64,000 nt of DNA from a candidate division FCPU426 bacterium (GTDB taxonomy: Bacteria > Oederibacteriota > Muellerivitia > Muellerivitales > Muellerivitaceae): the NCBI GenBank assembly GCA_963771075.1, contig CAVYSE010000008.1, positions 34,317-98,316 on the forward strand, written 5' to 3'. This document shows, piece by piece, positions 7,890 to 59,675 of the stretch. Position numbers and translations under genes: made by a program. The notes beneath the pieces are model-generated. The model saw only the letters and a program-made list of their open reading frames with translations. It was not told where the DNA came from and made no database searches. Position 1 is the first letter of the stretch. Each line of letters starts with the position of its first letter.

Positions 7890-7926
7890 GTTGCACACCA
7901 TCCTTTTTGGGAGGGCCATGTGCAGG
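7890..7926. repeat. 37-bp junction hairpin element, copy 1
   Basis: GTTGCACACCATCCTTTTTGGGAGGGCCATGTGCAGG. Confidence 0.9.
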
Positions 7927-8420
7927 GGTCCATCGTCTCGAATAATTCAAAATCGGCCGAAAAGTTCATCCACGGGATTAAGGTCTTAATGGCCAAAAAC
8001 TACGTGGATAACCTCTCTGAGGAAACTCGCAAGGGGATGACTGAAAAGGCGGCGGAAGGGATATGGCCATCCGCCGCTCCCCTTGGTTACAAGAACATTG
8101 CCGGGCGTGACGGCAAGCGAACCATAAAGCCGGATTCCAAAATGAGCAGGATCATTTATTCCCTGTATAAGGACTATTCAACGGGGCGTTATTCCCTCAC
8201 TGAAATAACTAAGAGGGACTGGAATAAAGGGTTGGTGGTCCGGAAAAGCAAAAAGATTCTTTCCAAGAGTACAGTTTATAAAATTCTAACTAACCGGATG
8301 TATACGGGGGTGTTCCAATGGAGAGAGATAAATTATCGGGGTAAGTACAAGCCTATCATTCCGCAAAAACTTTGGGATAAAACCCAGAAGGTTATGGAAA
8401 AACACTTCAAGTTAAGATAA
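7927..8420 (+). pseudogene. 5'-truncated near-identical copy of the serine recombinase at 45686-46519
   Basis: Matches ~46026-46519 from GSIVSNNSKSAEK onward; lacks the catalytic YVRVSS segment. Confidence 0.9.
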
Positions 8421-8434
8421 TCAGTAGTACTGAG

Positions 8435-8462
8435 TGTTCCTTTTGGGTCCCCATCATGGACA
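8435..8462 (+). repeat. att-like dyad site (array 2, site 1)
   Basis: TGTTCC-TTTT-GGG-TC-CCC-ATCA-TGGACA directly after the recombinase copy. Confidence 0.8.
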
Positions 8463-8475
8463 AAACTTTTCTTCA

Positions 8476-9621
8476 TTACGACAGTTTCATCCACCAGGGC
8501 GGTTGAAGTTTATGGGGCTTGCGGCCCACGGCAAATGGTGCGAGATCCATTTCCGTTTTCCCGTCCAAAATCAATTGCGTCATCAGGTGTCCACTAGCGG
8601 CTGCCAGAAGATGCCCATGCGTGTGGTGGCCCGCCGCGATAAAAAGCCCGTCCGTTCCCGGAACCGCGCCCAGGAAAGGGTGGCCGTCCACCGAACCGGG
8701 GCGGAAACCGGCGAAATAACCCGACACTCGTAGCGGCGACAAGGTCGGTGCCATGCGCCTGGCCGCAGTCGCCAGGGTCGCAATGCCTTCAGGTGTCACA
8801 GCCCGCTCAAACCCGGCTTTTTCCAAGGTACTCCCGACGTACAATTCGCCGCCCCGGCGCGGCACCATATAGTACCCGGTCGCGAAGAGGATATGCTTGA
8901 TCCCTGAAGGGGGACCTTGAAGAAGCAGTACCTGTCCCCGAAGGGGATACACCGGCAAATTGATCCCGAGCGGGCTCAATAGTTCCGGCGCCCAAGCCCC
9001 AGTGGCCAACACCACTGCGTCGGCTTCGATCATCCGTTTGCCTGTTTTCACCCCTTGAATTTTTCCGCCGCGAACCACCAACGACTTCACCGGTTCGTTG
9101 GAGTGAATAGGCACTCCGGCTTTCCATACCGCTTTCACCGCCGTCAGACACATGGCTGAGGGGCGAATCTGGATGGTTTCGGGCAGGTACATGGCCTTGC
9201 GGACATCTTTCGGCAAGGCGGGTTCCTTGCGGCGAGCTTCCTTGTTGTTCAACCACCGAACCACCATACCCAATTGCTCCAGGCGTTTCGAAAGCGTCCT
9301 CGCGTTCTTTTCTTCCATCGCAGAAAACAAAAGCCCCATCGAACCCGACTTCTCCCATTCGGGGTCCACCCCGGAGACGCGGTGAAGTTCCTTCACCCAG
9401 GACGGGTACAGGCAGTAGGACAAACGGCTTAGTTCATAGAGTTCCGGGGTATCGAATGCCACACTGTGGAGGGGCAACATCCCCGCACCAGCGGCGGATG
9501 CTTCTTGCGCGGGCTCGTGACGATCCAGAACTACTGGCCGTGCACCGCGTTTTTTGAGGTGCCAAGCGATGGAGAGGCCGACGAGGCCCCCACCCACCAC
9601 GAGAACTTTTGTTTTATTCAT
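8476..9621 (-). CDS. thiO: Glycine oxidase ThiO-like FAD-dependent oxidoreductase
   Basis: VVGGGLVG, EASAAGAGML, PLRGQ, YMVPR and AGFRPGS motifs. Confidence 0.8.
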   Translation of the reverse strand: MNKTKVLVVGGGLVGLSIAWHLKKRGARPVVLDRHEPAQEASAAGAGMLPLHSVAFDTPELYELSRLSYCLYPSWVKELHRVSGVDPEWEKSGSMGLLFSAMEEKNARTLSKRLEQLGMVVRWLNNKEARRKEPALPKDVRKAMYLPETIQIRPSAMCLTAVKAVWKAGVPIHSNEPVKSLVVRGGKIQGVKTGKRMIEADAVVLATGAWAPELLSPLGINLPVYPLRGQVLLLQGPPSGIKHILFATGYYMVPRRGGELYVGSTLEKAGFERAVTPEGIATLATAARRMAPTLSPLRVSGYFAGFRPGSVDGHPFLGAVPGTDGLFIAAGHHTHGHLLAAASGHLMTQLILDGKTEMDLAPFAVGRKPHKLQPPWWMKLS

Positions 9622-9722
9622 GTTTTCTCCCAGGTTCAGAAAAAAAGGGTCGGATCGCGGGCTGGCGCGACGATCTCTTGGTTTGGTTTCCAACCTTCAA
9701 CATTTCGAACATAACATTTGGT

Positions 9723-9750
9723 TGTCCAGGATGGGTCCCCGTCATGGACA
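9723..9750 (+). repeat. att-like dyad site (array 2, site 2)
   Basis: (GT)TGTCCA-GGAT-GGG-TC-CCC-GTCA-TGGACA(AC). Confidence 0.85.
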
Positions 9751-9788
9751 ACCCGTTACATTTAGAGCGAAGTAAAATGGAACAAGGA

Positions 9789-10097
9789 TTAAGCTGTGTG
9801 GGCGTGGATCCGCAGTTCCGTCTTTACCCAGCCAGCGCGTTGAGCAAGGCGAAGATCGTAATCCGATTGAAGTGTGAGCCAGGTTTCGGGCGAAACGCCG
9901 AAATACTTCCCCAGACGTAAAGCAGTGTCAGCCGTAATCGAGCGGCCCGCATTGACGATGCCGCTGATGCGGTTGGGCGGAACGATGATGTCGCGTGCCA
10001 GTTGATTGATACTGATACCCATGGGTTTCATAAATTCCTCTAAAAGCACTTCCCCGGGATGGATGGGATCCAACTTTTTCGCTTTTGTATTCATCAT
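9789..10097 (-). CDS. higA: HigA antitoxin
   Basis: PIHPGEVLLEEFMKP...ITADTALRL...WLTLQSDYDL. Confidence 0.92.
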   Translation of the reverse strand: MMNTKAKKLDPIHPGEVLLEEFMKPMGISINQLARDIIVPPNRISGIVNAGRSITADTALRLGKYFGVSPETWLTLQSDYDLRLAQRAGWVKTELRIHAHTA

Positions 10098-10103
10098 TTC
10101 ACC

Positions 10104-10382
10104 TCAGTGATAATCGACTATCTCAACGTTTATGGCTTCGCCCTCGTGCCAAGTAAAACAAATTCTCCATTGGTCGTTGACGCGGATGCTGTGCTGGCCT
10201 TTTCGATCGCCTTTCAACGCCTCCAACTGATTACCCGGCGGCACCCGTAAATCTTCGAGTCTTTTCGCGGCGTTCAAGTAGAGAAGTTTCCTCCGGGCCA
10301 CGCGTTCAATATTCCTAAAACGCGGAACAACATTGTCCAGAAAAAGGGATTCAACCTCTTTATCTCGAAAAGTTCGAATCAT
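10104..10382 (-). CDS. higB: HigB (RelE/ParE family) toxin
   Basis: MIRTF...PPGNQLEALKGDRKGQHSIRVNDQWRICF...VEIVDYH; lies upstream of higA. Confidence 0.92.
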   Translation of the reverse strand: MIRTFRDKEVESLFLDNVVPRFRNIERVARRKLLYLNAAKRLEDLRVPPGNQLEALKGDRKGQHSIRVNDQWRICFTWHEGEAINVEIVDYH

Positions 10383-10412
10383 AAGTTATGCTATTACGAG
10401 GTGCGTAATAGG

Positions 10413-11228
10413 TCAAGTGAAATTGACAAAATGTCGCGAAAAGAAGGGGTTGCACACCATCCTTTTTGGGAGGGCCATGTGCAGGAAATTCGAATAATCT
10501 GTTTCTTTTAATATATAAAATACATTGTCAAAAGTTTTTTTCTCTCGATTAAACGGCTTACAAATCATTTCCGACCCACGAATATCAATGATCATCGTTT
10601 CTGTTTTGCCCATAATTACCGAATGATTCGTTTCGTGTGCCGCAATGTTTTGCCCATACAAACTGAATAGAGAAGGACAAACATATAAACTCCAAAAAGC
10701 TAAATAGAACGCACGGCCAAATTTATTAATAAACCAGTATTCAAAATCCGAATGAATAATGCTTGGGGACGGTTTTTCAGCTCTGGACCAAATTTTATTA
10801 TGTCTTTCCCAGTAAGGAAGACCCGTACTTTTATAACGAAATGCTGGTAATAAAAACTCGATCGATAAAAAACCCAAAAAAATCAGTAAATAAACCTTCC
10901 AATTTTCCCATCCAAAAACCAATGTACATATAAAAAACAAAGGAAGACAAACGCCCCAAATCAAAAACCCTTTTCTCACCCTCGTATCTTTTCTTGGGAA
11001 ATACATAAATACATAATTCAATGCAAAAACCACAAAAACAATAACTCCCAAAATCGGGTTAGCAATTGTTAAAAGGGATGAAAAATCAAACTCAACGCAG
11101 TTTGCCGGAATGCGGTAATTAGAAAAATAACCAGACTTATATCCAAAAGCACATAAATAAAATAAAGCGGAGATGTAAATTACAAAAAGGCCCTTATCAA
11201 AATTTAGACTTTTATTTTCGTCGGCCAA
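10413..11228 (-). CDS. AT-rich multi-pass membrane protein whose C-terminus runs into the 37-bp element
   Basis: Several hydrophobic helices; the last residues (LHMALPKRMVCN) are encoded by the 37-mer. Confidence 0.6.
   Translation of the reverse strand: MADENKSLNFDKGLFVIYISALFYLCAFGYKSGYFSNYRIPANCVEFDFSSLLTIANPILGVIVFVVFALNYVFMYFPRKDTRVRKGFLIWGVCLPLFFICTLVFGWENWKVYLLIFLGFLSIEFLLPAFRYKSTGLPYWERHNKIWSRAEKPSPSIIHSDFEYWFINKFGRAFYLAFWSLYVCPSLFSLYGQNIAAHETNHSVIMGKTETMIIDIRGSEMICKPFNREKKTFDNVFYILKETDYSNFLHMALPKRMVCNPFFSRHFVNFT
10449..10485. repeat. 37-bp junction hairpin element, copy 2
   Basis: Identical to 7890-7926. Confidence 0.9.
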
Positions 11229-11258: not shown

Positions 11259-12134
11259 CTATTTTAATAAATCATTAAGAACGTACGCCAACCGGAGCCC
11301 CGCCTTCTCGAGTTGTTGGTCCACGATGGGGCGCATTTTATCAAAGTAATTACTCGGGAGGGGGTTAACGGTGTAGTCCTGGGTCCCGGGGCTCATACCC
11401 GGGTAAATCTTCGTTTTGGCGATCATGTAACTCTCAAAAGCCCAATTCTTTTCATTCCCCTTGGTCCAGGCGGCCGCTTGGTCCTTGGGGATCGCATTTT
11501 CAAGGGTGGTGGCCAGCTCCCGGGGATCCTCCCCGGTCTTTGTCTCAATAAGGTGGTCCCAGAGGGCGTGTAGTTTGATTTTAGCCCCGTGGCCCGGCTT
11601 CCCTGGGGCCTTGAAACGAACAAGCTTTTCATTTCCCCCGCGGTCGCTATCGTCCGCGCAATGAAGGGGCTGATGGAGGTCGCCCATGAAATGGACGACG
11701 AATTTAAGGGCCTCTAAACGCTTGGACTTGGGTTGGGATTCATCCCCGAGGATCCCTTGGTTAATTTGGAGCTGGTTTATGACGCAATCATTATTGGGGC
11801 AATAGGCCTGCTCGTCCTTGACCGTGAGCTCTTTCCGGATGGGAAGGTCGATGAAATGCCACGGGGCGGTTTCCGGGCGCCCAAACTGTCTAACATGGTC
11901 GGCCCAATTGGAAATGGTGGCCAGGTCGTCCCCCTGGTCCAGAAGGGTTGTTATTTTCGCTTTGGCGGCCGGGGAGAGGTTGTCCTGGGCGATATAAGCG
12001 ACTGTTTCGTGCCCAACCGGACCCCATGCGGCGGCCGGCATTGCCGGCAGAAAAGCAAAAAGTAGGGGTAGAAGGATACCCGATCGAGGGGTGATCGCCT
12101 TAAAGAAAGGCCTCTGGATGAAAAAATTCTTCAT
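11259..12134 (-). CDS. Secreted S1/P1 nuclease
   Basis: Signal peptide, then WGPVGH, WADH, WHFID, HFMGDLHQPLH, LHALWD and QLEKAGLRLA. Confidence 0.92.
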   Translation of the reverse strand: MKNFFIQRPFFKAITPRSGILLPLLFAFLPAMPAAAWGPVGHETVAYIAQDNLSPAAKAKITTLLDQGDDLATISNWADHVRQFGRPETAPWHFIDLPIRKELTVKDEQAYCPNNDCVINQLQINQGILGDESQPKSKRLEALKFVVHFMGDLHQPLHCADDSDRGGNEKLVRFKAPGKPGHGAKIKLHALWDHLIETKTGEDPRELATTLENAIPKDQAAAWTKGNEKNWAFESYMIAKTKIYPGMSPGTQDYTVNPLPSNYFDKMRPIVDQQLEKAGLRLAYVLNDLLK

Positions 12135-23718: not shown

Positions 23719-23945
23719 CCCCTAAATTTCCAACATTATACGCATCATGTCTCGATGTTGGTTTAGCCCAAAAGGCCAAAAGCAGGGGTATGAGGAAGAA
23801 GGCGTAGCGAAGAATATTGTTTCGCGGCCTGCGACGAGGACACAATCCGAGGAGCAATCCTTGGACGTGCCGGTTCCAGAGGTAACCGGCTGGTGAGATC
23901 GCCCAAATGCGGGGCCGTAGCTTGCAAGAAATTTTCATTTTTATA

Positions 23946-43255: not shown

Positions 43256-43274
43256 TGTTGAGACTCCTTGCTGA

Positions 43275-43753
43275 TTGATTAGAGGAGGGAGCGGCCTCCG
43301 GGGACCGCCCCCCCAAAAGACTTGGGGGCGGGCCACGGAGCGAAAAGAGGTGTTCGTCTTTGGAAAACTTTTGTTCCGGGGGAGTGCGTCTAGGTGTCAG
43401 CATCATCCGGGCAAAGCCCGTCCCGTCTGTGCTGGCCGGATAGCCGACGGAGGAGGCCCGGCCAGGGACGGGGTTTAGGGGCGGAGGCCCCGGCCCGGAC
43501 GGCAAAGCCGCCCGGAAAATAGTTTTCTACAGGATTTGCGTCTCTGGGATTGTCAGGGGGCACTCCCCCTGACTAGGGTAGGGCTTGGTGACGGGGATCT
43601 TCCCGGCCCAAAGGGGGTTCCGGGGGGCTGTGCCCACCCGGGCCAGGAAAAGGTGAAGGGAAGGGGGTGTTCCCTGCCCTTCGAGTTAAAAATCTTTTGA
43701 GGAAACCTACACGTCCCCGGGAAGCCTTCCGGCCCGGGGACGGCGAGGTTTCC
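43275..43753. repeat. ~480-bp structured repeat, copy A
   Basis: Homologous to 45120-45597 and 55119-55597; many hairpins. Confidence 0.88.
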
Positions 43754-43816
43754 GACCCGCGCGGCGCTGGGTCCGTGGCCAGGCCCTTTAGGGCCCGGCC
43801 TGGTCCTCGGGGTTCT

Positions 43817-45102: not shown

Positions 45103-45119
45103 ATCGCTTCTCCTTTGTT

Positions 45120-45597
45120 TGATTAGAGGAGAGAGCGGCCTCCGGGACCGCCCCCCCACAAAGACTTGGGGGCGGTCACGGAGCGAAAGAGGTGTTCGCC
45201 TATAGAAAATCGAAGTCCGGGGGTTGTGCGCTTAGGTGTTAGCAAACGGGGATTTCTCTCCCCCATCTGTGCTGGCCGGATAAGACGACGGAGGAGTCCC
45301 GGCCAGGGGGAGAGAAAAGGCGCTGACCGGTCCCCGCCACGAAGTGGCCCCCGGATTCGGTTTTCGTCCACGTTGCTGTGCGACGCCGGGCATATCAGGG
45401 GTTACTTCCCCTGATTAGGGAAGAGTTTGATGACGGGGATCTTCCCGTCTCAAGGGGAGACGGAGGGGCTAACAGCCCACTCGGGCTAGGAAAAGGTGAA
45501 GGGAAGGGGTTCTTCCCTGCCCTTCGAGTTTAAAAGCCTTTAGAGGAAACCTACACGGCCCACGGGAAGCCTTACCGCCCTGGGACGGCGAGGTTTC
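45120..45597. repeat. ~480-bp structured repeat, copy B
   Basis: Directly upstream of ardC. Confidence 0.85.
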
Positions 45598-45685: not shown

Positions 45686-46519
45686 ATGAAAACTGCCATC
45701 GTCCCCAAACAGCCAACCCAAGCGGTTCTTTATGTCCGGGTATCTTCCAAGGAACAGGAAAAAGGGGGGTTCTCCATCCCGGCCCAATTGAGATTGCTTC
45801 GGCAATATGGTGAAACCCAAGGGTTCACCATCATCAAAGAATTTCGGGACGTTGAAACGGCCAAGCAATCTGGCCGTGAAGGCTTTGGTGAGATGGTTAA
45901 TTACCTTCTGAATAATTCAAACTGCAAATATTTATTGGTCGAGAAAACTGATCGCCTTTACCGGAATTTCAAGGATTACGTTTCGTTGGAAGATATGGAT
46001 GTTGAGATCCACCTGGTTAAAGAAGGTTCCATCGTTTCGAATAATTCTAAATCGGCCGAAAAGTTCATCCACGGGATTAAGGTCTTAATGGCCAAAAACT
46101 ACGTGGATAACCTCTCTGAGGAAACTCGCAAGGGGATGACTGAAAAGGCGGCGGAAGGGATATGGCCATCCGCCGCTCCCCTTGGTTACAAGAACATTGC
46201 CGGGCGTGACGGCAAGCGAACCATAAAGCCGGATTCCAAAATGAGCAGGATTATTTATTCACTTTATAAGGACTATTCGACGGGGCGTTATTCCCTCAAG
46301 GAAATAACTAAGAGGTACTGGAATAAAGGGTTGGTGGTCCGGAAAAGCAAAAAGATTCTTTCCAAGAGTACGGTTTATAAAATACTAACTAACCGGATGT
46401 ATACGGGGGTGTTCCAATGGAGAGAGATAAATTACCGGGGTAAGTACAAGCCTATCATTCCGCAAAAACTTTGGGATAAAACCCAGAAGGTAATGGAAAA
46501 ACACTTCAAGTTAAGATAA
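45686..46519 (+). CDS. Short serine recombinase (resolvase catalytic + recombinase domain; no zinc ribbon/coiled coil)
   Basis: YVRVSSKEQ, KTDRLYRN, APLGY, ILTNRMYTG and KPIIPQKLWDKTQ, then stop at 277 aa. Confidence 0.9.
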   Translation: MKTAIVPKQPTQAVLYVRVSSKEQEKGGFSIPAQLRLLRQYGETQGFTIIKEFRDVETAKQSGREGFGEMVNYLLNNSNCKYLLVEKTDRLYRNFKDYVSLEDMDVEIHLVKEGSIVSNNSKSAEKFIHGIKVLMAKNYVDNLSEETRKGMTEKAAEGIWPSAAPLGYKNIAGRDGKRTIKPDSKMSRIIYSLYKDYSTGRYSLKEITKRYWNKGLVVRKSKKILSKSTVYKILTNRMYTGVFQWREINYRGKYKPIIPQKLWDKTQKVMEKHFKLR

Positions 46520-46533
46520 TCAGTAGTACTGAG

Positions 46534-46561
46534 TGTTCCTTTTGGGTCCCCGTCGTGGACA
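46534..46561 (+). repeat. att-like dyad site 1
   Basis: TGTTCC-TTTT-GGG-TC-CCC-GTCG-TGGACA. Confidence 0.85.
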
Positions 46562-46623
46562 AGTTTAGAACGCTGGGTTACCAGGGATAAATGTTCGGTT
46601 CCCACTAAATTCCCACATTCCAA

Positions 46624-46651
46624 TATTTGAAATAGCTCCCCGTCGTGGACA
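46624..46651 (+). repeat. att-like site 2 (left arm degenerate)
   Basis: TATTTG-AAAT-AGC-TC-CCC-GTCG-TGGACA. Confidence 0.7.
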
Positions 46652-46666
46652 AACAAATATTTCTAT

Positions 46667-47332
46667 TTATCGTTGGCGTCGTTTAAATATTGGCAAGTTA
46701 AACAGATCAGCCAAGGTATACTTTTCCTCTGTTATTAACTTAACTTCCGCTTCTAGCTTTTTTACTATTTCGCCTAATCTCAATTCAACCACATCTTCTT
46801 TGCTACTTCGCCATATTAGATCTCCAGCTTGTTCTATTAACTGTAAATCAGCTTCTGATTGAACATAAACTTGGTTTGTCGCCTTCTCGTACCAATGCTC
46901 CCTCATAATATCCGCACCCCAAATTATGTCATTCCATAACTTGTTCGCGTCGGTATAAATTTCTTCCGCAGGTTTTCCAAACCTCGCCATCGTTGTGTAT
47001 TTAAGCTTAAAAAAATTATTAATGTATTCTTTTCCGGAATTATAGCGTGCATAAAATACATAGCCTTGGTCTTTTGCATGAACAACTTCAGGTGGATCGC
47101 TTTTCTCTTTTTCTGATTTAGGTCTCGAAGCGCTTTCTGCTGTTGACGAAAGTGGGTTTCTTATATTCCAAATTGAATCTTTGAAAGCGTAAATCGAAGC
47201 CAACCATTCTTCAGCCAATTCAATTCTTCGTTTAGAAATAAATTCTTGCCGCCAAATACTTAAAGTTGCAATACCCACCCAAATCCCCACCAAAATAGAA
47301 ATCGATTGAAGAATTTGGATCGCCTCATTCAT
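46667..47332 (-). CDS. Cassette gene: N-terminally anchored hypothetical protein
   Basis: AT-rich 221-aa ORF with one TM followed by helices. Confidence 0.7.
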   Translation of the reverse strand: MNEAIQILQSISILVGIWVGIATLSIWRQEFISKRRIELAEEWLASIYAFKDSIWNIRNPLSSTAESASRPKSEKEKSDPPEVVHAKDQGYVFYARYNSGKEYINNFFKLKYTTMARFGKPAEEIYTDANKLWNDIIWGADIMREHWYEKATNQVYVQSEADLQLIEQAGDLIWRSSKEDVVELRLGEIVKKLEAEVKLITEEKYTLADLFNLPIFKRRQR

Positions 47333-47390
47333 TTAATTTATCCTTTTCCAAGAACAGCGAATGAAAAACCAAAACCATTTCTACAATTCT

Positions 47391-47418
47391 TGTTTTTTCA
47401 GGGTTCGGGACGTGGACA
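47391..47418 (+). repeat. att-like site 3 (degenerate)
   Basis: TGTTTT-TTCA-GGG-TT-CGG-GACG-TGGACA, same 16-bp spacing. Confidence 0.55.
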
Positions 47419-47477
47419 ATTTAATTACCACGATTTAAAACAACTAAATGTCTAAATATTCTTGCTAAAGGTTTTTT

Positions 47478-49155
47478 TCAGTTATTGGCCAATTGTATTT
47501 TGCGAATTAAGTGGTTTAATAATTCTGTCACATAAATATTATTAGAAGCATCAACTGCGATACCAACGGGACAATTAAATGAAGAGGAATTTCTTTTTCC
47601 ATTTCTAGAGCCTTCTTTTCCTGAACCGGCTAATGTTTTTACCATACCATCAGTAGTTATTTCCCGAATTAGGTTATTATTCCTATCAACCACAAGGATA
47701 GACCCCGTTTTTTCCACGGCGATTCCATCAGGATGATTAAAAGTTGCAATGGCAACCTTCCCATTTCTTGACCCTCTAATTTTTGCTTGCCCAGCAACTG
47801 TGCTTACAACCCCATTTATATTTATTTTTCTAATTAAATTGTTCACCGAATCTGCTACAAAAACTTCGCCAGCAGAATTTACTGCAATTCCTTCTGGGTT
47901 GTAGAATGAAGCGGAAATCCCTTCCCCGTTTTCTGAACCTTTTGAGCCTGATCCTGCAATTGTTGTCACCAATCCAGCCGGAGTAATTTTTCTTATGAGT
48001 TCATTTTGAGTATCCGCAACATAGATATTACCCGAAGAATCCACAGTAATTCCTTCCGGAGAATGAAACATCGCGTAACATTGAATCCCATTAGCGGACC
48101 CAGGTTTTCCATTTCCCGCTAAAATTGTAAGCTTTCCATCACAAGTGATTTTAAAAATTGCGTTTTCAGCTGAATCCGCCACATAAATATTATCCTTGGA
48201 ATCAATCGCAACTCCTACAGGGCTAACAAATAAAGAATCAGAATGATTTTCCCTTAAACGACACATCAAATTTTGTTACCAAACCATTAGGATTAATTTT
48301 TCGAATTGATTCCCCTGATGCAACAAAAATGTTTCCGTGGGAATCTAAAGCGATGCCCCTTGGGTGAGAGAATGAGGCCTCAATTCCTAAACCATTCTTG
48401 TAACCAATTTCGCCTGAACCTGCGAAAGTCGTAACAATCCCACCATTTTTTTCTTCCGATCCATTTGAAAATAAAGGGAAGGCATGAAAATGCTGTTGAA
48501 TGAATATGCCAGCAATCACAAGGAAAATAATTATTACAGGCAAACGGTTCCTAAAAATCAAATGCTGGACTTCCTCATTCCTAAAATTGAACCCGCACTC
48601 CAAACAATAGGCAGCTTTAATCGGGTTTTTGGTTTTACATTCTGGACAGGCTTTGACTTGGCCTTTTACTGTTGTGGCCGGGTGTTCTCTATTTTCCATC
48701 CCTTCTTCCACTGCTTCTTTTAGAACCATTAATTTTGGAACTGATTTTGTTACTCTTATCACTTTGGTTCCGGTGATCCGGTCATGCCATCCTCGGGGAG
48801 TTTCATCGCCACTTAAAAAAGAGAATGGCTCAAAAGGTATACAACGACACATAGCGCGGGTTAAAACATTCCAAATATTCAAATTTGTCCCGTCTTCCTT
48901 GACGGCTTTGGTCCTAGTGATTATTTTCCCAATGGTTCTTCCCCCAAAAATTTCCTGGGAGAAATAAATGACCGCCAATATAAAACCGAGACTGTATTGA
49001 CCTAAATGTTTTGTGAGTTCGGCCAAACCGATCGAACCCAAGAAATAACCGATGCCATATCCAATTTCTTTCCCAAAAACGTTTATGAGGAGGTAGAAAA
49101 TAAATATATCGATCAGGTAATTGGCTAGTCTTTGGTTTTTTGTGGCCAGTTCCAT
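47478..49155 (-). CDS. Cassette gene: RDD + zinc ribbon + NHL-repeat protein, split by one frameshift near 48245
   Basis: RLANYLID, GRTIGK and RGWHDRITGT; CPEC/CLEC; repeated P.GIAVD..GNIYVAD. Confidence 0.8.
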
Positions 49156-49297
49156 TTGCTTTCCTAAAATGAATAAGAACCGAGATTTATTCTAAAAATC
49201 AAAGGATAGGCCTTCCTTGCCGTTTTCCAAGCAATCTAGAATTATAATTCGGCTTTAACTACCCTTCTTCTGAAGCCTTTTGTTCTCGTAATTTTCA

Positions 49298-49325
49298 TGT
49301 CCAAGAAGGGTCCCCGTCGTGGACA
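49298..49325 (+). repeat. att-like dyad site 4
   Basis: TGTCCA-AGAA-GGG-TC-CCC-GTCG-TGGACA. Confidence 0.88.
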
Positions 49326-49368
49326 CCCCAAAAATGGTTAATGGGGGCCTGACCTCGTTTTTTTAGAG

Positions 49369-50289
49369 TCACGCCAGGATCATATCAATCTTGTTCAAGT
49401 CATCGTCGGTCAAGTGCCAGTCGGCGGCAGCGGCGTTCTTGGCGATCTGTTCGGACTTGGTTGCACCGGCGATGACCGAGGCGACGGACTTCCGAGTGAG
49501 CAGCCAAGAAAAGGCGAGTTCGAGGATTGTGTGGCCCCGCGATTCAGCGAAAACAATCAGCTTCTCGACGATGTCCAGGTTCTTGTCGGTCAATAGGTTC
49601 GAGAAGTTATTATCGGACTTGATGCGTGCGCCTTCGGGAAGGCGCTGCCCTTGGCGGTATTTGCCCGTGAGCAGGCCGCTAGCAAGGGGGAAGTAGGGCA
49701 GAAACGCGATTCCGAGTTTCTCGCACTCGGGGAGCACCTCGGCCTCGGGGTCGCGTTTCAACAGGCTGTAGTCGTTCTGGACACTGACGAAGTGCACCGC
49801 GCCCCGCGTGACGGCGGCCCTGGCCTCTCGCAGTTGTGCGGCGGAGAAATTAGAGCAGCCAATCTCACGAACCTTACCGGCCTGGACGAGTTCATTGAGA
49901 ACTCCTAGCGTGTCGGCGATGGGTATCGTGTCGTCGGGCAGGTGCAATTGATACAGATCAATGCGATCGGTATTGAGTCGCCGCAGGCTGTCCTCGACGG
50001 CCCTGCGGATGTACTCAGGTTTGGCCCCGCCGGGCATGGCGTCGTTGATGGGAGCGCCGAACTTTGATGCCAGTATCACCTGATCTCGACGCATCCCCAG
50101 CGCGTTCCCCAGAAACTCCTCGCTCTTGGTGCCGCCGTAGATGTCGGCGGTGTCGAAGAAGTTGATGCCGGCGTCGAGACTGGCGTCAATGACGCTTTTT
50201 GTGGCGTCGGCGTCAATGCGCCCGCCGAAGTTGTTGCAGCCCAGCCCAACGACCGAAACGTTGAGCGACCCAATCTTGCGTGTCTCCAT
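49369..50289 (-). CDS. Cassette gene: aldo/keto reductase
   Basis: GLGCNNFG, FFDTADIYG, SLRRL.TDRIDLYQLH and PLASGLLTGKY. Confidence 0.92.
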   Translation of the reverse strand: METRKIGSLNVSVVGLGCNNFGGRIDADATKSVIDASLDAGINFFDTADIYGGTKSEEFLGNALGMRRDQVILASKFGAPINDAMPGGAKPEYIRRAVEDSLRRLNTDRIDLYQLHLPDDTIPIADTLGVLNELVQAGKVREIGCSNFSAAQLREARAAVTRGAVHFVSVQNDYSLLKRDPEAEVLPECEKLGIAFLPYFPLASGLLTGKYRQGQRLPEGARIKSDNNFSNLLTDKNLDIVEKLIVFAESRGHTILELAFSWLLTRKSVASVIAGATKSEQIAKNAAAADWHLTDDDLNKIDMILA

Positions 50290-50380
50290 GTGATATTCTC
50301 TCGTGTTCTAAAATCAACTTCGTGAAGTCGTATGCTCTCAGAATACCCCGAATCACCGGAGGGTTTCGTTCATATTTTAT

Positions 50381-50407
50381 TGTCCAATCCGGGTCCCGTC
50401 GTGGACA
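50381..50407 (+). repeat. att-like dyad site 5
   Basis: TGTCCA-ATCC-GGG-TC-CC-GTCG-TGGACA (1 bp short). Confidence 0.82.
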
Positions 50408-50517
50408 AGGAAAGAATCCTAAATTAATAAAAGACTTGGTTTAAGTTTGCTGAGTCTTTAAATGTTAAAAGTTTCTCCCCTTATCGTGGGTGTAATCTTT
50501 TTAATGGCAGATTTAGC

Positions 50518-51285
50518 TCAGGCAAGCGTCAGAACCCTGGGACCTTTTTTTGTAATAGCAACGCTGTGTTCCCAGTGAGCGGCCAGTCCCCCTTCTCGGC
50601 TGACCACCGTCCAACCGTCTTGGAGAATCCGAACCGCGCCGCTACCCAAGACCAACATCGGTTCGATCGCCAAGACCATTCCAACCTTCAGTTCCGGACC
50701 GGAACCCCGGCGCCCATAATTAGGTACCATAGGGTCTTCGTGCATTTCGCGGCCAATGCCGTGGCCCACGAAATCCCTGACAATGCCATAGCCTTTTTCA
50801 TTGGCCAAAGCTTCGATGGCGGCCCCCAAATCGCCGAGGTGTTTTCCAGGCTGGCATTCGCGAATCGCGGCATCAAGCGCTATCCGGGTGTTGTCCAGGA
50901 GATCTCGTGCAGGAGCGCTGATAACGCCCACCGCGATGGTACGGGCCGCATCCGCACTGTAACCGTTCTTTTGGCAGGCAAAGTCGATGCCGATGATGTC
51001 CCCTTCTTGAAGAATCGCTGCCTTATCGGGAATGCCATGTACGACAACATCATTGATCGAGGTACAAAGAACAGCTGGGTAAGGCGAAACCGGCCCAGGT
51101 TGATAACCCAAGAACGACGATCGCGCCCGTTCCCGGCTCAAGATATCAAAAGCGATCTCATTCAACCGGGCCGTCGTGGTTCCAGGCACGCAAGCGGCTT
51201 CAACCGCGTCCAGCACAGCCGCAACAACGCGTCCCGTTTCGCCCATAAGATTAATTTCTTCCCCGGTCTTTAAAACGATACCCAT
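50518..51285 (-). CDS. map: Cassette gene: type I methionine aminopeptidase
   Basis: CTSINDVVVHGIP, GHGIG..MHEDP, AIEPM and AHWEHSV. Confidence 0.92.
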   Translation of the reverse strand: MGIVLKTGEEINLMGETGRVVAAVLDAVEAACVPGTTTARLNEIAFDILSRERARSSFLGYQPGPVSPYPAVLCTSINDVVVHGIPDKAAILQEGDIIGIDFACQKNGYSADAARTIAVGVISAPARDLLDNTRIALDAAIRECQPGKHLGDLGAAIEALANEKGYGIVRDFVGHGIGREMHEDPMVPNYGRRGSGPELKVGMVLAIEPMLVLGSGAVRILQDGWTVVSREGGLAAHWEHSVAITKKGPRVLTLA

Positions 51286-51433
51286 GACCCCTCCTTGAAC
51301 TAAGAAAAATTATGCCGGTCTCCATCTTGAAGTACAACACCTTGGGGAGGGAGGTTCATCTCCTACCGACCTTTTCTTGAAACCATCCCAAACCCTCGTT
51401 GGGATCAGGGATTGGCCAAACACTGCTTTTCCC

Positions 51434-51462
51434 TGTCCACTGCTGGGTCCCCGTCGTGAACA
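51434..51462 (+). repeat. att-like dyad site 6
   Basis: TGTCCA-CTGCT-GGG-TC-CCC-GTCG-TGAACA. Confidence 0.8.
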
Positions 51463-51648
51463 AGGATCATGCTATTTAACTTCAAAATCCTTCAACCCTT
51501 TTGGCCAAAGTACCATTAATTCATCTCCTTCAATAAACGAAAAAGGCATTTGCCGGTTCCAAATCGGACAGGCGGCTATTTTATTCTTCCGGTTGCGCAA
51601 CGTCCAAGGCTGCGCGATGGATTGCGCCAAGACCGAGATTACTCCAAG

Positions 51649-52245
51649 TCAGGGCCGAACGGTGGTTGCCTTAAGACCGTCAAGGATCACCGTGAACAGC
51701 TGTCGCTGGCGCGCCGAAAGGTACGGCTCCTGATCGCCGATCCATGCCATGGCGTTGACAAGCGCAAAGAGGTCATTCACTCCGATATCGGGGCGTATTT
51801 GTCCGCTCGCCTGCGCGCGCTTGAGCATAAGGTCGAGCCCTTGGCGGACAGCCACGCAGGAGGAGTGGAGCGGCGACTTCGTGTCCTTGAAGCTGCCCAT
51901 GAGAGAGGAGGCGACGCCCCGATAAATGGCAACGGCGGCCATATACTCACGCAAACAAGTCGTCAAGGCCGCGCCAGGATCGTCAGCCGATGCGGCCAAT
52001 CGTGTCTTTTCCGCGAACACCTCAAGGCGCTCACGAAGTAGCGCCTCAAGCAAAGCCTCACGTGAGGGGAAGTGACGATAGAGCGTACCTAGGCCGACGC
52101 CCGCCCGGCGTGCGATGTCGCGCAAAGAAGCGTTCGTGCCACGCTCGGCTATCACGGTATGTGCGACCCGCAGTAACCGGGAGTAGTTACTTCGCGCGTC
52201 GGCGCGTTTACCGTCTGGGCCGTCCAACATTGTTTTCTTTTTCAA
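51649..52245 (-). CDS. TetR-family regulator
   Basis: RADARSN...IARRAGVGLGTLYRHFPSREAL. Confidence 0.9.
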   Translation of the reverse strand: MKKKTMLDGPDGKRADARSNYSRLLRVAHTVIAERGTNASLRDIARRAGVGLGTLYRHFPSREALLEALLRERLEVFAEKTRLAASADDPGAALTTCLREYMAAVAIYRGVASSLMGSFKDTKSPLHSSCVAVRQGLDLMLKRAQASGQIRPDIGVNDLFALVNAMAWIGDQEPYLSARQRQLFTVILDGLKATTVRP

Positions 52246-52260
52246 GGTTTAAATCCTCGA

Positions 52261-52312
52261 TTGACAAACGGTTCGCTGCTCCGTATATATTGTAAGCGGA
52301 GCGGTGATCCGT
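52261..52312. promoter_or_regulatory. Divergent promoter/TetR operator region
   Basis: TTGACA-17bp-TATATA; two CGG-N9-CCG imperfect palindromes. Confidence 0.55.
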
Positions 52313-52327
52313 ATAAAGTATATCACC

Positions 52328-52528
52328 CCGGATTTCCCAAATGAAATTTCTATACGAGTATAAGTTGAATTTTCTGCCTTTTGGATCTGTTGGGATTTCG
52401 GTTTGGATGATTTCGACAGCTGGATTTGATCGGAGATGTCAAATTCCGGTGGAAAATATGGAGGGCAGTATTATGAACGCCAACTTACCCGGCAACGATG
52501 CTGGACAACTTCATCCGGGAAATCCCGG
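52328..52528 (+). mobile_element. ~200-bp MITE related to the IS1380 element
   Basis: The left end CCGGATTTCCCAAATGAAATTTC...CGAGTATAA and right end TTACCCGGCAA...CATCCGGGAAATCCCGG resemble both ends of 21689-23391. Confidence 0.75.
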
Positions 52529-52595
52529 TTTGAATGTTTGGCTCAACTGCTCTTCCCAATCGCAATGGGGATGGGATTTGGGCAAGGAGGCCTAA

Positions 52596-53495
52596 ATGGA
52601 AAAAAACATCATCTATGTGTTTTCTGGAACCGGAAATAGCTTGAAGGCGGCAAGGGACATCTCGGCGGCGCTGGGGGATTGCAGGCTCATCTCAATGGGC
52701 ACCCGAGGCCAAGGCGAACCAGCGCGTGGGCTTGACACCATCGGATTCGTGTTCCCCACCTACTTCCGCGGCGAGCCAAAACAGGTGCGGGAGTTCATCC
52801 GGCGGCTTGATCTGCGGACGAACAAGGACGCCTATTTCTATGCCGTGACGACAATGGGACGCTATGACGGCAATTCGTTGAACCACATCATGAGGCTGCT
52901 GAAGAAAAAGGATGTCACGTTGAACTATTCCCGCGCGTTGGATATGTATTCGAACTACATCATCTCTTACGATATGAAGGACACGGTCGCGGAAGAAACA
53001 AGGCGGTCGGACGTGGCTCTAGGGCCAATCATCCAAGACATCAAGAACAGGACCACCAACAAAGCCGCCGGATGCGAGCCGCTACAAGAAGTCGCCTACA
53101 GGTCGCTGATCGCCTTCGCGCATGACATGGACAGGTATTACACTGTTTCAGGAGCATGTTCTGGTTGTGGAATCTGTGAAAAAGTCTGCCCAGTTGACAA
53201 CATTTGCCTGGATGACGCGGGCCATCCGAGCTTCCAACATCGCTGCGAGCAATGCGTGGCGTGTATCCAGTTCTGCCCAACGAGGGCGATCAACTACAAG
53301 GACCGAACCCAGAACCGGAAGCGTTACACCCATCCCGCGATCAATTACAAGGACCTGGCCGCGTTGAACGGCAAGAACGGCCCCAGACTGGGATGGGCCA
53401 AAGCTGTCGTTTATTCTTCGGTCGGCAACCAGTCGCGTCGCTCCGTTGTTTCAACGCTCCTCGCCAGGGCTCTATGGAAAATCTACGGCATGTGA
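52596..53495 (+). CDS. EFR1-family flavodoxin-fold/4Fe-4S ferredoxin protein
   Basis: FSGTGNS, GFVFPTY, CSGCGICEKVCP and CEQCVACIQFCP. Confidence 0.88.
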   Translation: MEKNIIYVFSGTGNSLKAARDISAALGDCRLISMGTRGQGEPARGLDTIGFVFPTYFRGEPKQVREFIRRLDLRTNKDAYFYAVTTMGRYDGNSLNHIMRLLKKKDVTLNYSRALDMYSNYIISYDMKDTVAEETRRSDVALGPIIQDIKNRTTNKAAGCEPLQEVAYRSLIAFAHDMDRYYTVSGACSGCGICEKVCPVDNICLDDAGHPSFQHRCEQCVACIQFCPTRAINYKDRTQNRKRYTHPAINYKDLAALNGKNGPRLGWAKAVVYSSVGNQSRRSVVSTLLARALWKIYGM

Positions 53496-53599
53496 CGTGA
53501 CTTGCTGTTCAGGCACGCCTGTTCCTGTAAATAAGAGGCCAAACCTGACCCCGTATTTCTTCCTCGGCGGCTTGTAGTTTCAGTAGCACAAGCAAGTAT

Positions 53600-54172
53600 C
53601 TAGGTTGGGCCGGACATTCGCGAGAGCTTCTCCTCAGAGTCGCTAGGTACGCGGCATGCGCTTTCATAGCGGTTCACGAGATTGAACCAACTCAGCATTA
53701 GAATCAATTTCCGCGTGTTATCCACGCCCCAACGCTCGATGGCCGCTTTCAGCAAATCGTCTCCGAGGGTCGCGTTATCCGCGATGTCGTCCGCCATCCG
53801 CGCGATCAAAACGACGGCTGAGTCTATTCCCGTGACTGGACCGTCAGCGGTGAGCGCCTCCACCTCGGTTTTTGAAAGCCCGCTATTGAGCGCTATACGA
53901 GTGGAAGCACGCATGGCATAAACGCAATTCAAGCGCACGGCGGTTCGCACGATCATGGCTTCCCGCAACCTGGCGTCGGCAGCGGAGCAGGCGAAGACCG
54001 CCTTCATTAGCGCGACAGCCGGGCCCGCGAGATCCCCCGCCGCCGCCAACGCGATTGCCCCATTGAGCGTTTTGTCAGGATTGAAATCACTTCCTAAGAC
54101 GGCTCGCGCTTCCTCGGCGGTTGGCATCGGCAAACAGATATCGGTCATTGCTCTCCTTAGTGGATCAGACAT
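53600..54172 (-). CDS. Carboxymuconolactone decarboxylase/AhpD-like protein
   Basis: RLREAMIVRTA...CVY...ALNSGL...WFNLVNR. Confidence 0.65.
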   Translation of the reverse strand: MSDPLRRAMTDICLPMPTAEEARAVLGSDFNPDKTLNGAIALAAAGDLAGPAVALMKAVFACSAADARLREAMIVRTAVRLNCVYAMRASTRIALNSGLSKTEVEALTADGPVTGIDSAVVLIARMADDIADNATLGDDLLKAAIERWGVDNTRKLILMLSWFNLVNRYESACRVPSDSEEKLSRMSGPT

Positions 54173-54229
54173 GAAAAATGGGGTCGGGCATCCATTATCC
54201 TGGCTACTACACCCTTGATCCTGGCACGG

Positions 54230-54257
54230 TGTCCACCCTGGGTCCCCATCGTGGACG
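54230..54257 (+). repeat. att-like dyad site 7 (array end)
   Basis: TGTCCA-CCCT-GGG-TC-CCC-ATCG-TGGACG. Confidence 0.8.
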
Positions 54258-54377: not shown

Positions 54378-54403
54378 AGCGGGGGCAAAGCCCCCGCTTT
54401 TTT
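54378..54403 (+). terminator. Rho-independent terminator, possibly bidirectional
   Basis: AGCGGGGGC-AAA-GCCCCCGCT followed by a T run; A run upstream. Confidence 0.65.
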
Positions 54404-54475
54404 GATTTCCCTCAAAAGCTGAAAGCCCCGGCCTGGTGGCCAGGGCTCCGCTTCTAGTAAATTTTGAATTCCTTG

Positions 54476-54970
54476 TTAAGCCAAAAGCCCGGCTTGTCGG
54501 AAAGAAAAGTGGCCCTCATGGGTCACGATAACGTGGTCATGGACGGTGATTCCAAGCGCACGGCAAGCGGTGACAATCTGGCGTGTGAGCTGGCGGTCGC
54601 CCTCTGAGGCTTCAAGGCTTCCTCCGGGGTGGACGTGGCTCAAGATGATTCCAGAAGCGTCTAGCTCCAAAGCCTTCTTGAGGACTTCCCTCGGGTAGAC
54701 GGCGGTATGGTCAACGGTTCCCTCTCCTCCGGCGATTACGTCCAAAACGTGGTTGCGGTGGTCAACGTACATGGTCAAGAAAATCTCGACCTTCTTCCCG
54801 CCTATCCATTTGCGGAAATAATCGGCTGCGTCTCCGGGGCCGGATAAAGCGGGTCCCCTCTTGTAATCGGCTCGAGCTTCAGCCCATGAAACCGGAATAG
54901 TGGTCGGAGGTATTTTGAACATCACGTCTAAAGTCATTTCGAGTTGTTTGGGTTTCCTGTTCATGACCAT
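54476..54970 (-). CDS. RadC-family JAB-domain protein
   Basis: GTVDHTAVYPREVLK, LSHVHPGG...SEGD and VHDHVIV. Confidence 0.88.
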   Translation of the reverse strand: MVMNRKPKQLEMTLDVMFKIPPTTIPVSWAEARADYKRGPALSGPGDAADYFRKWIGGKKVEIFLTMYVDHRNHVLDVIAGGEGTVDHTAVYPREVLKKALELDASGIILSHVHPGGSLEASEGDRQLTRQIVTACRALGITVHDHVIVTHEGHFSFRQAGLLA

Positions 54971-55092: not shown

Positions 55093-55118
55093 GTCACCCT
55101 CCGCATGATTTATTTGTT

Positions 55119-55597
55119 GGAGGGGAGCGGCCTCCGGGGACCGCCCCCCCAAAAGACTTGGGGGCGGTACACGGAGCGAAAAGGTGGGCGCTGTTGGTTC
55201 CAGAAATTCTTTGTTCCGGGGGAGTGCGTCTAGGTGTCAGCATCATCCGGGCAAAGCCCGTCCCATCTGTGCTGGCCGGATAGCCGACGGAGGAGGCCCG
55301 GCCAGGGACGGGGTTTAGGGGCGGAGGCCCCGGCCCGGACGGCGAAGCCGCCCGGAAAAAGGATTTCTTCCACGTTGTCGTACGCTGTGGGGGCTCCGGG
55401 GGTTACTTCCCCCGGGCTAGGGTGGGGAAAAAGGGGAGGGGGTTTTTCGTCCCTCCCCCTGGGGGGGTCCGGGGGATCTCCACCCGGGCCAGGAAAAGGT
55501 GAAGGGAAGGGGTTTCCCCCTTCCCTTCTTGGAAAAATTTTTAAAGGAAACCTACACGGCCCCGGGAAGACTTCCGCCCGGGGACGGCGAGGTTTCC
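55119..55597. repeat. ~480-bp structured repeat, copy C
   Basis: Near-identical to copy A over ~55209-55358. Confidence 0.88.
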
Positions 55598-55610
55598 TAC
55601 CTGCGCGAAA

Positions 55611-55934: not shown

Positions 55935-56202
55935 TTATCCTTTCTCTATGTTGAAAAAGTAGATGTGAACCACACCATCTACAAAAGCCCCCTGGATTTC
56001 CGCCATCTGGTCATTTTCCAATTGGAAAGTGACCGTCCCATCCTTTTGATTCCTTAAGTCGAACCACCTTTTCGGTGGCCACCACCTTAAAGCGTCAATC
56101 CGCTGGTCCAAAAGGTCTTTTTGAAACTTCGTCAATCCGTTCTTACGGTCTGACATCAAAAAGTCGTAATTCTTTCTCGCTTCCACGTCCCATATAATTT
56201 CA
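55935..56202 (-). pseudogene. Possible RelE-like toxin clipped at its start by the 37-bp element
   Basis: EIIWDVEARKNYDFL..., about 88 aa, upstream of the RHH gene. Confidence 0.35.
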
Positions 56203-56239
56203 GTTGCACACCATCCTTTTTGCGAGGGCCATGTGCAGG
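56203..56239. repeat. 37-bp junction hairpin element, copy 3
   Basis: One mismatch (TTTTTGCGAGG) versus copies 1 and 2. Confidence 0.9.
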
Positions 56240-56716
56240 CGAGTAATTGGGAATCATGGTTGGAGTATAGGTGGCGGTTGGCAGGACCGAAGGCCCATCG
56301 GTGATCGAAACCGAGGCTATATTGACAGTGACAGGCCCGACATGCGCGTAATTCGATGCCCCGCCGCCGTATAAGAGTTGCATCCCGATTTCCGTGACGC
56401 CTGTTGCGGCACTGCTGATCGTAATTCCACACTGGCTCCAAGTTGTGGAAAGGGTGTTTACCCAGCCGCCAGGAAGAGACCCCCCGGAGGCGCTACCAGT
56501 GGCCGCATATAAGTTGAGGTTTCCCATGTGGACTTTTGAAAGAATTTGCTTGGTTTCCGGACTGATAATGGTGCGAATTTTAAAATCTTTTATGTATTCA
56601 GCCTGTGTGAGGGAATGTTTGAAAAAAAGATGGGTGTGGCTGATGCTCCTGAAGGATTTATGGCAGATTTTGCAGTCGATCAAGGGTATTCCAGTCAAGG
56701 TTAGATTCACGACCAA
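56240..56716 (-). pseudogene. Chimera: MucR-like zinc-finger N-terminus fused to a secreted-protein fragment
   Basis: CKICHKSFRSISHTHL...HMGN matches the ISL3-split gene; it is followed by unrelated G/S/T-rich sequence ending PTATYTPT. Confidence 0.6.
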
Positions 56717-56743
56717 TGATGTGGGCGAAGCATGCCAAATAAG

Positions 56744-57102
56744 TCATTCAGGCTGGTCTTTTCCGAAAGGAACCGCCCCAGCGGTCCTTTTACTTGATTG
56801 GAGAACCCAACCGATACCTGATTTGTAATAATGCCCCAGCCATTGTTGGATACGGCCTCGGTTAAGTCCAAGCCTTTTCCCGACCTCTTTGACTTTCATT
56901 CCTTTCGCGAGCCAGGCAAGCGCCTGTAGTTTTCTTTGACCCATGGCCGGGCTTCTTTATGAAGAAAAGATTCAATTTCTTGAAGGTCCATATCCCTTTC
57001 AACCTCGTCTTGAGTACCACCGATTGCAATAGTTAACAACTCGTGACGTGGAATTTTTCTTTCAATTTGCATTTCCCTATTTGGGTAAGTGGTTACCGTC
57101 AA
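56744..57102 (-). pseudogene. HTH fragment resembling IS630-type N-terminal HTH
   Basis: KLQALAWLAKGMKVKEVGKRLG...IQQWL..Y...G. Confidence 0.4.
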
Positions 57103-57262
57103 ATCTTTCGCGAAAACCCATAAGGCCGGACTGCTTATGAAATCTTTTAAGGCAGAAAGTCCTTATCAACCACGATATGAACCTTTTTACAAAGTTATCC
57201 TCGGCCGTACAAGGCTACAAATCGCGAGGCCTTTCAACTTTTGGAATTTCGACCATGGCTCA

Positions 57263-59179: not shown

Positions 59180-59233
59180 ATTTCCCTATCTGGAGGGGAT
59201 GGTGGGTGTGGTAAGGAATAGGCACCTATACTA

Positions 59234-59398
59234 ATGCGTAAAGCCCGGTTATCGAAAGCCGAATCTCTCTTGAAAGAGGGTGACTTGACACTAGAAAGGA
59301 TCGCGCAGGAATGCGGCTTCGCTTCGGCCAGTACCTTTTCCATCATTTTCCGTAGAACTTTCGGAACTTCCCCGAGGAAATATATTAAGAAAGGGTAG
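59234..59398 (+). pseudogene. AraC-type C-terminal HTH fragment
   Basis: MRKARLSKAESLLKEGDLTLERIAQECGFASASTFSIIFRRTFGTSPRKY (not in the ORF track). Confidence 0.7.
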
Positions 59399-59675
59399 AA
59401 TGGATTCCACGTGATTTTTTTTAGGCATCTCAAAATCCGGGTCCAATATCCTTTTTTCTTGCAGAGTAGAGCACTGGCGCGAATGCCTTAGAGTACGATG
59501 GCTAATCCAACCCTTTTGAATTGGGCCTCAGTCCGGCTCTTATAACCAAGTTTCCAGCGCCACCCTTCTTGAGTGCACATAGTTGAAGCAGCGCCTTTGC
59601 ATAAGACGTGGCTTAACAATACATATTTGGACACTCTTTTCCAAAATAAACGTTAAAGTATCGCAGCCTGTTCCT

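Follow-up and report, generated by a model that had tools for sequence, protein, structure and literature searches.

The 64,000-nt stretch of contig CAVYSE010000008.1 analyzed here (the window) comes from a candidate division FCPU426 bacterium whose genome we refer to as G000. Its positions 7890 to 10485 are occupied by a unit bounded on both sides by identical copies of a 37-bp repeat of CRISPR type, repeat B (7890-7926 and 10449-10485, both on the minus strand when the strand is stated along the cas1-cas2 direction). Adjoining the left copy on its inner side is the 3' part of a short serine recombinase gene (7927-8420, plus strand, about codons 114 to 277), which shows 97% identity with positions 46026-46519 of the window and is followed by a first, docking site (8435-8462, plus strand) of the type that we call site A. 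This attI-like site consists of a platform-specific left arm, a TC centre and a cassette-derived right arm. Next comes a minus-strand gene for a glycine oxidase of 381 aa, thiO (8476-9621, with its ATG at 9621 and its TAA at 8476). A second site A (9723-9750, plus strand, or 9721-9752 with the outer GT/AC) closes the thiO cassette and opens a higBA cassette (9789-10382, minus strand), in which higA (9789-10097) and higB (10104-10382) match the Pfam families HTH_3 and HigB-like_toxin. This cassette is cut before its closing site, and the repeat at 10449 forms the right boundary of the captured unit of 2,522 bp. The two sites A of the unit had no matches in 100 shuffles.

The initial annotation of this region had described positions ~7927-8462 as a duplicate of ~46026-46561, followed by a thiO-like gene that is closed by another site at 9721-9752. 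The pairwise alignment that it had proposed gave 97.0% identity over 538 nt without gaps (7926-8463 against 46025-46562), and both the minus-strand thiO gene, above the TIGR02352 cut-off, and its closing site were found as described. Just outside the duplication only 10 of 50 and 7 of 50 nt matched, which is the chance level. The identity had been thought to end just after the TGGACA motif of the first site; it merely appears to do so because this motif is common to all sites. Two of the 16 mismatches of the duplication (8453 and 8456) fall within the right arm of the first site, and the exchange maps to site positions 13 to 18, as detailed below. Nor is the left end of the duplication placed at random: it adjoins the repeat B whose twin closes the unit. 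The recombinase copy begins at about codon 114 of 277, past the catalytic domain, and matched PF07508 without PF00239 in Pfam; with this domain missing, it is presumably inactive. Between the fragment and the intact gene 12 of 164 codons differ, 10 by synonymous and 2 by non-synonymous changes, one of the changes (K205T) being common to P0001. Since the divergence is mostly synonymous, the fragment likely derives from a functional sibling allele. The locus had been taken for a second array of the same kind. However, it is cut through both the recombinase gene and higBA and is bounded by repeats linked to Cas1-Cas2, and the unit 7927-10448 is best read as a dead array fragment stored between CRISPR-type repeats, not as a working second platform.

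The intact gene (45686-46519, plus strand) encodes a short serine recombinase of 277 aa that carries PF00239 and PF07508, without zinc ribbon or coiled coil, and is the sole PF00239 match in the genome. Residues Y16, R18, S20, R90 and R93 are invariant in all 14 rows of the alignment, in which the short form ends just before the zinc ribbon Cys motifs of its long relatives. The short clade comprises 19 clusters of 275 to 283 aa that are 68-96% identical, and PF13408 is absent from all 19; the next relative is 58% identical and has a zinc ribbon. In G000 (4 copies), G044, G024, G004, G021 and L181, the short form is followed by a site A at 9 to 35 nt from its stop codon. The short form of G046 is frameshifted, with a site near the gene end, and G020 has half a site only after its short recombinase gene. 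No site was found with the long relatives, which have at least 220 extra residues (0 of 7 in one set and 0 of 8 closed ones in another). L012 and L013 are the same DNA as G044:C17 and G004:C2 and were counted once. The short recombinase occurs in only 7 of the 31 family genomes, fewer than carry sites, and G002 and G008 have many sites and no short recombinase match; such recombinase-poor, site-rich genomes might be explained by a mobile platform acting in trans or by genome incompleteness. IntI was considered as the driver and rejected, as none of five genomes had a TIGR02249 match above the cut-off (the best scored 73.9 bits against 265). Matches to tyrosine recombinases in the source genome numbered eight.

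For LI integrase, the published description states that the recombinase domain contacts attP half-site positions 9-11 and the zinc domain positions 16-24, and that exchange is efficient only with parallel alignment of the central dinucleotide (PMC3783163). By analogy, a protein without the zinc domain would fit arms of 13 bp. All four recombinase ends of the source genome have an identical left arm in their first site (8435-8462 here); the right arm differs from that of the intact copy in two of the other three. The variable cassette content that had been deduced from two loci holds for all four copies, and also for G044, G024, G004 and G021. Besides the window fragment, truncated recombinase ends lie at G000:C6:158408-158967 and G000:C28:107694-108019, each with a first site and cassettes of its own. 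These two do not start at repeat B, which is thus not the only route to such ends. A 13-bp palindrome lies between the recombinase stop and the first site at window 8420-8433 and 46519-46532. It is possibly a candidate binding site; a similar palindrome occurs in G044, G021 and L181, and was missing from G004:C2, G024 and G020.

A profile derived from the genome has as its consensus a 28-bp palindrome, site A, in which 13-bp inverted arms flank a central TC. The source genome contained 107 matches, against none in one block-shuffled copy. They fall in 28 clusters, 16 of them with at least two sites, and adjacent sites are co-oriented in 76 of 79 pairs. Of the 77 segments that hold an ORF of at least 70 aa, 67 have an antisense first ORF; the first ORF ends a median of 19 nt from the site. 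TC occupies the centre of 381 of 401 sites from eight genomes, partly by construction of the profile. A pattern search located site A in 21 of 24 family genomes and, beyond the family, in the single genome of another family of the order and in 0 of 15 others of the phylum. The main array of the window (46534-54257, plus strand) begins with the first site at 46534-46561 and continues with sites near 46624, 47391 (degenerate), 49298, 50380, 51435 and 54230; its cassette genes are mostly on the minus strand, and array genes point towards the enzyme gene. Site A folds as a hairpin. A promoter borne by the site was looked for in 363 flanks, and no peak of -10 boxes appeared at a fixed distance. Rfam searches yielded group II intron models only, in four sources, and no match for site A or repeat B. 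About 12 copies of a 1,980-bp group II intron were observed in G000 (for example L001:7662-9641), located some 2 nt from site A, to one side of the palindrome or the other. The intron encodes a reverse transcriptase/maturase of 529 aa above the TIGR04416 cut-off.

The exchange point was sought in the same 401 sites, for which array regions were taken from seven relatives; these were picked from match lists and represent selected arrays rather than whole genomes. After 12 sites beside the intron were dropped, we searched for pairs sharing one flank and differing in the other, and found changed neighbours in 27 left-flank and 29 right-flank families. Breakpoints were counted on flanks at least 98% identical, with one pair per flank family and without left flanks ending in the intron motif. 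The 13 left-shared pairs had no mismatches in the left arm and eight in the right arm, the earliest at position 18. The 17 right-shared pairs showed 43 left-arm mismatches, the last at position 13, and five in the right arm, with none at positions 14 to 18. Left arms thus go together with their left flanks without exception, and most right arms with their right flanks. This places the exchange point inside the site, bracketed by these mismatches to positions 13 to 18 around the TC at 14-15. Three observations run counter to a clean exchange model, however. Five right-arm mismatches persist in right-shared pairs, the opening arm of the thiO cassette differs at several positions between G000 and G020, and predicted circle junctions of 56 cassettes were no more palindromic than chance (3.5 mismatches, against 3.6 in shuffled ones and 3.36 in the linear sites). 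The initial annotation had seen in the captured unit a natural experiment on cassette content, and the comparison of the two loci does support cassette exchange, apparently within the site rather than at its edge.

The thiO product of the window scored 273.1 bits with TIGR02352, against a cut-off of 250.8, which two core-clade ThiO copies that were checked also clear narrowly. Its stop codon lies 13 nt from the site. ThiO-like genes are present in 29 of the 31 family genomes, and a tree was built with 31 proteins, namely 30 loci plus the host copy on contig C28 read with an X at its break. This phylogeny, which had been suggested as a check, separated with 100/100 support a core clade of 25, the host copy among them, from a smaller one of six to which the window gene belongs. 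The cassette gene is thus not a copy of the host's own thiO. Two members of the smaller clade are flanked by sites A (G000 and G020) and four have no site within 1.5 kb; the G014 member sits between thiG and a ThiF-family gene. The cassette thiO was likely recruited from such an ordinary chromosomal context in a relative. The host core gene itself (G000:C28:391798-392872) is split in two frames, perhaps by a sequencing error or a real break, and thiS-thiG-like genes were noted on C1 near 73.7-74.9 kb.

Both cassettes recur with changed neighbours in a different genus. In G020 the thiO cassette lies between the same kind of sites, with 88% identity over window 8457-9750 and different surroundings; the left arm that closes it is identical to that of the 9723 site and the right flank differs. 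The thiO and higBA cassettes stand there in the other order, with a CAAX-protease cassette between them, and the higBA copy extends about 63 nt more, up to its closing site. In one public contig higBA continues for 94 nt beyond 10449, and 99% identical higBA copies with different left neighbours occur in public runs.

Repeat B is partly palindromic, direct, and present in 29 copies in the source genome. The two cuts of the captured unit coincide with its identical copies at 7890 and 10449. The contig of the window has no cas genes; a cas1-cas2 pair lies on contig C1, with one repeat B about 20 nt 3' of cas2. The cas1 product scored 240.8 bits with TIGR00287 (cut-off 71.7). The cas2-like gene directly after it encodes 111 aa and matches PF09827 weakly (E 0.006, 17.2 bits against 23.8), with no NCBIfam match. 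In the full loci of G000, G004, G014 and G044 a constant short spacing separates cas2 from the repeat behind it, the G001 contig ending at that point, and no effector genes were recognised by eye among the ORFs of C1:36-56 kb. Among the 31 family genomes nine carry repeat B; this Cas1, 96-100% identical, occurs in five of the 31, every one of them a carrier of the repeat. The 54 inter-repeat segments of five genomes range from 30 to 14,100 bp with a median of about 1.7 kb, a count that leaves out G000 segments longer than 15 kb; two are of canonical size and three contain sites A. Canonical spacers of 30-38 nt thus occur among the long ones, and one public contig has a repeat-32 nt-repeat arrangement. 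Several segments begin or end in the middle of genes of which full copies exist elsewhere. For instance, a 559-bp piece of an IS1380 transposase gene has repeats at both ends, whereas three full copies have none, and in G044 a cas1 fragment is found among the segments. Exact donors were few, and the spacer ends showed no strong base bias. A separate CRISPR locus of type I-E-like organization, with 61-bp periodicity and a cas1 matched in two pieces, was observed at G000:C3:181.9-195 kb.

The third repeat B of the window (56203-56239, minus strand, one mismatch) forms the junction between sequence also present on contig C12 and 274 bp identical to C16. Between 10486 and 56202 extends a 45.7-kb stretch with repeat B at both ends, whose contents include ardC, radC, the intact platform and genes resembling those of conjugation (TraG P-loop). 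At 10486 an ORF continues into the repeat, and at 56202 the homology with C12 breaks off at the repeat. This stretch could be one very large inserted segment. A 379-bp spacer, L125 (G002:C4), is 100% identical to G000:C12 and 99% identical to window 54398-54776, in the radC region, so the platform-carrying element has been sampled as spacer DNA in another genome. Beyond the third repeat, window 56240-61391 is a mosaic of near-identical host pieces from C16 (274 bp), C7 (2.2 kb, including a gene for the flagellar hook) and C11 (2.1 kb), possibly an assembly chimera of the contig end. No repeat marks the junction of C7 and C11 at 59234; such a mosaic indicates that local chimeras exist in this assembly.

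The two likely capture systems are nested in one another. In five of seven full-length loci (G004, G014 and three times in G044) cas1 is preceded, at about 75 nt, by a site A, and these five sites share the same left arm and have five different right flanks; the cas1 loci of G000 and G001 lack it. Judged from its cas1-side site, the cas1-cas2 module constitutes a site-A cassette of its own in those five loci. Remnants made of repeat plus leader and closed by a site A were found in G000, G002 and G004. In G000, 6 of the 29 repeats lie within 2 kb of a site A, against 1.5 expected from random placement, a proximity that could also come from shared residence on islands.

Taken together, these comparisons favour, with a probability of about 0.63, the reading that the unit 7927-10448 is a cassette-array fragment likely inserted whole by Cas1-Cas2 as a 2.5-kb spacer, from a source array likely built by the short serine recombinase cutting its 28-bp sites at TC. 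Recognition of the two 13-bp arms would fall to the recombinase domain, and with an asymmetric TC sites could be joined in one orientation only, which fits the co-oriented sites observed. Without a coiled coil any two sites could recombine, and cassettes could be excised as circles and re-inserted. Cas1-Cas2 would insert a piece of DNA at the repeat and duplicate the repeat. The synonymous bias suggests that the captured piece came from a sibling platform allele with thiO as its first cassette. The fragment cannot shuffle itself, but its two sites could be served in trans by the intact recombinase at a distance of 37 kb. Each system would also carry and spread the other, because the cas1-cas2-repeat module has a site A before cas1 and varying neighbours beyond it. 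A broader view, which we hold tentatively and at slightly less than even odds, is that two undescribed capture machines feed each other: a reversible serine platform without zinc ribbon, one of whose cassettes would be a Cas1-Cas2 without a length ruler, filing pieces from 30 bp to tens of kb (possibly the whole of 10486-56202), platform pieces included. Orphan arrays would then be scattered through the genome, and ordinary genes such as thiO would become mobile cassettes. A literature search judged from titles and the beginnings of abstracts, with subscription journals largely outside its coverage, found no description of a site-A or long-spacer Cas1-Cas2 system.

Other explanations differ in which of these steps they replace. 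The recombinase may shuffle the site A arrays while the unit moved in another way, either through repeat B as a transposon end or recombination sequence, or through homologous exchange between repeats that rearranges arrays. We consider this unlikely, in spite of the weak Cas2 match, the repeats of four genomes where Cas1 was not found, the leader-repeat pieces with deleted cas genes that spread as A cassettes and the two truncated recombinase ends without repeat B. Recombination between repeats reorders segments and cannot make new junctions from repeat to mid-gene. Moreover, the IS1380 piece of 559 bp is bounded by repeats that the full copies lack, the repeat keeps a constant short distance after cas2, and canonical spacers of 30-38 nt are present. 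Marginally less probable is that the cassettes are real and owe their movement to a different enzyme (a tyrosine recombinase, an HUH protein or a host factor that acts on the hairpin), the serine recombinase merely being located beside the site. The geometry of the site is of the serine type, with a symmetric sequence, an asymmetric 2-bp centre and a crossover at positions 13-18; the site comes after the short form's stop codon in five genomes and never after that of the long form, and no IntI exceeded the cut-off. Yet many site-bearing genomes have no detectable short recombinase, the site folds as a hairpin and is a group II intron target, the genome has eight tyrosine recombinase matches and the circle-junction test was null.

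The remaining two alternatives concern the origin of the second copy. A local duplication of the platform end, giving a second equivalent array that acquired thiO in place, would account for the same recombinase end and left arm with a different cassette. It is very improbable: repeats that belong to another system truncate the copy at either end, 10 of the 12 changed codons are synonymous, a pattern that suits a functional sibling allele better than a decaying local duplicate, and K205T is shared with P0001. An assembly artefact, in which strain variants were joined chimerically at repeats, seems a shade more improbable still. The genome is derived from a metagenome and has fold-back and mosaic stretches (an inverted copy on C26; the contig end), and none of the public runs that were found spans the unit: the best ones contain about 20% of its words, with no contig bridging it and no read spanning it. 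Such a lack of coverage does not count as evidence. Nevertheless, the artefact is an unlikely source of the duplication because the codon differences between copy and intact gene are synonymous in 10 cases and non-synonymous in 2, and 97% identity with such a bias is not that of a collapsed copy. A mis-join at a repeat would itself require a real repeat-to-fragment junction, and the layout of repeat plus fragment is the same in five genomes.

The proposed cassette system resembles integrons, which use IntI and attC, and their orphan clusters, the CALINs, as these are described in PMC4889954. The points in common with that description are a docking site beside the enzyme gene, arrays of mostly single-gene cassettes with ORFs ending near the sites, co-oriented and chimeric sites, cassettes that change position, enzyme-less orphan clusters, toxin-antitoxin cassettes and a group II intron beside the sites (PMC4889954). 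In contrast, site A is a fixed, near-perfect palindrome of 28 bp and attC is variable and folded, a difference judged by eye against the same description (PMC4889954). The enzyme here is a serine recombinase instead of IntI, the exchange maps to the centre of the site, and no promoter motif was found at a fixed distance from site A. Also, attI is located on the 5' side of intI, whereas the docking site here lies 3' of the enzyme stop and the cassette genes face the enzyme gene.

The enzyme resembles large serine recombinases such as the LI/A118 integrase (PMC3783163) in having a resolvase-type catalytic domain followed by PF07508 and an asymmetric central dinucleotide. The short recombinase is 45-60% identical to full-length relatives, and CcrA/B and XisF gave weak profile matches. 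Unlike those large enzymes, the short form has no zinc domain or coiled coil, and about 100 copies of one short symmetric site take the place of a single attP/attB pair. The repeat B loci share with CRISPR adaptation modules cas1, a cas2-like gene, a short leader, a 37-bp direct repeat and a few spacers of 30-38 nt. They differ in that most inter-repeat segments measure 0.2-14 kb and cut through genes, the arrays are spread across many contigs, inspection by eye showed no effector gene beside the pair, and the cas1-cas2 module travels as a site-A cassette. According to bioRxiv 10.1101/602623, the E. coli Cas1-Cas2 integrates only precisely sized prespacers. A Cas1-Cas2 that inserts kilobases would break this rule of fixed spacers and would bear on the origin of CRISPR from transposon-like integrases. 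Integron-style capture is known from tyrosine recombinases, and a serine version would represent a convergent second solution. An enzyme of 277 aa with one 28-bp site would make a compact and reversible tool for DNA assembly, and the short recombinase would be a natural test of the role of the zinc and coiled-coil domains in serine integrases. The exact junctions of the captured unit tie both systems together, and both are testable with short, defined substrates.

Two further families of repeated elements were observed in the window. Dispersed repeats of 60-85 bp, the third such family here, occur between 12050 and 25072 (near 12050, 13032, 15254, 16534, 23770-23943 and 24986) and lie between genes of nuclease type (S1/P1, PD-(D/E)XK, DUF4268); a strict pattern retrieved only two copies in the genome, both in the window. 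In addition, three homologous non-coding blocks of 500 bp (43264-43763, 45110-45597 and 55106-55607), 72-82% identical and also present on C12, are placed upstream of ardC, DUF2958 and radC-side genes. They are presumably repeated promoter elements of the leading region of a conjugative element.
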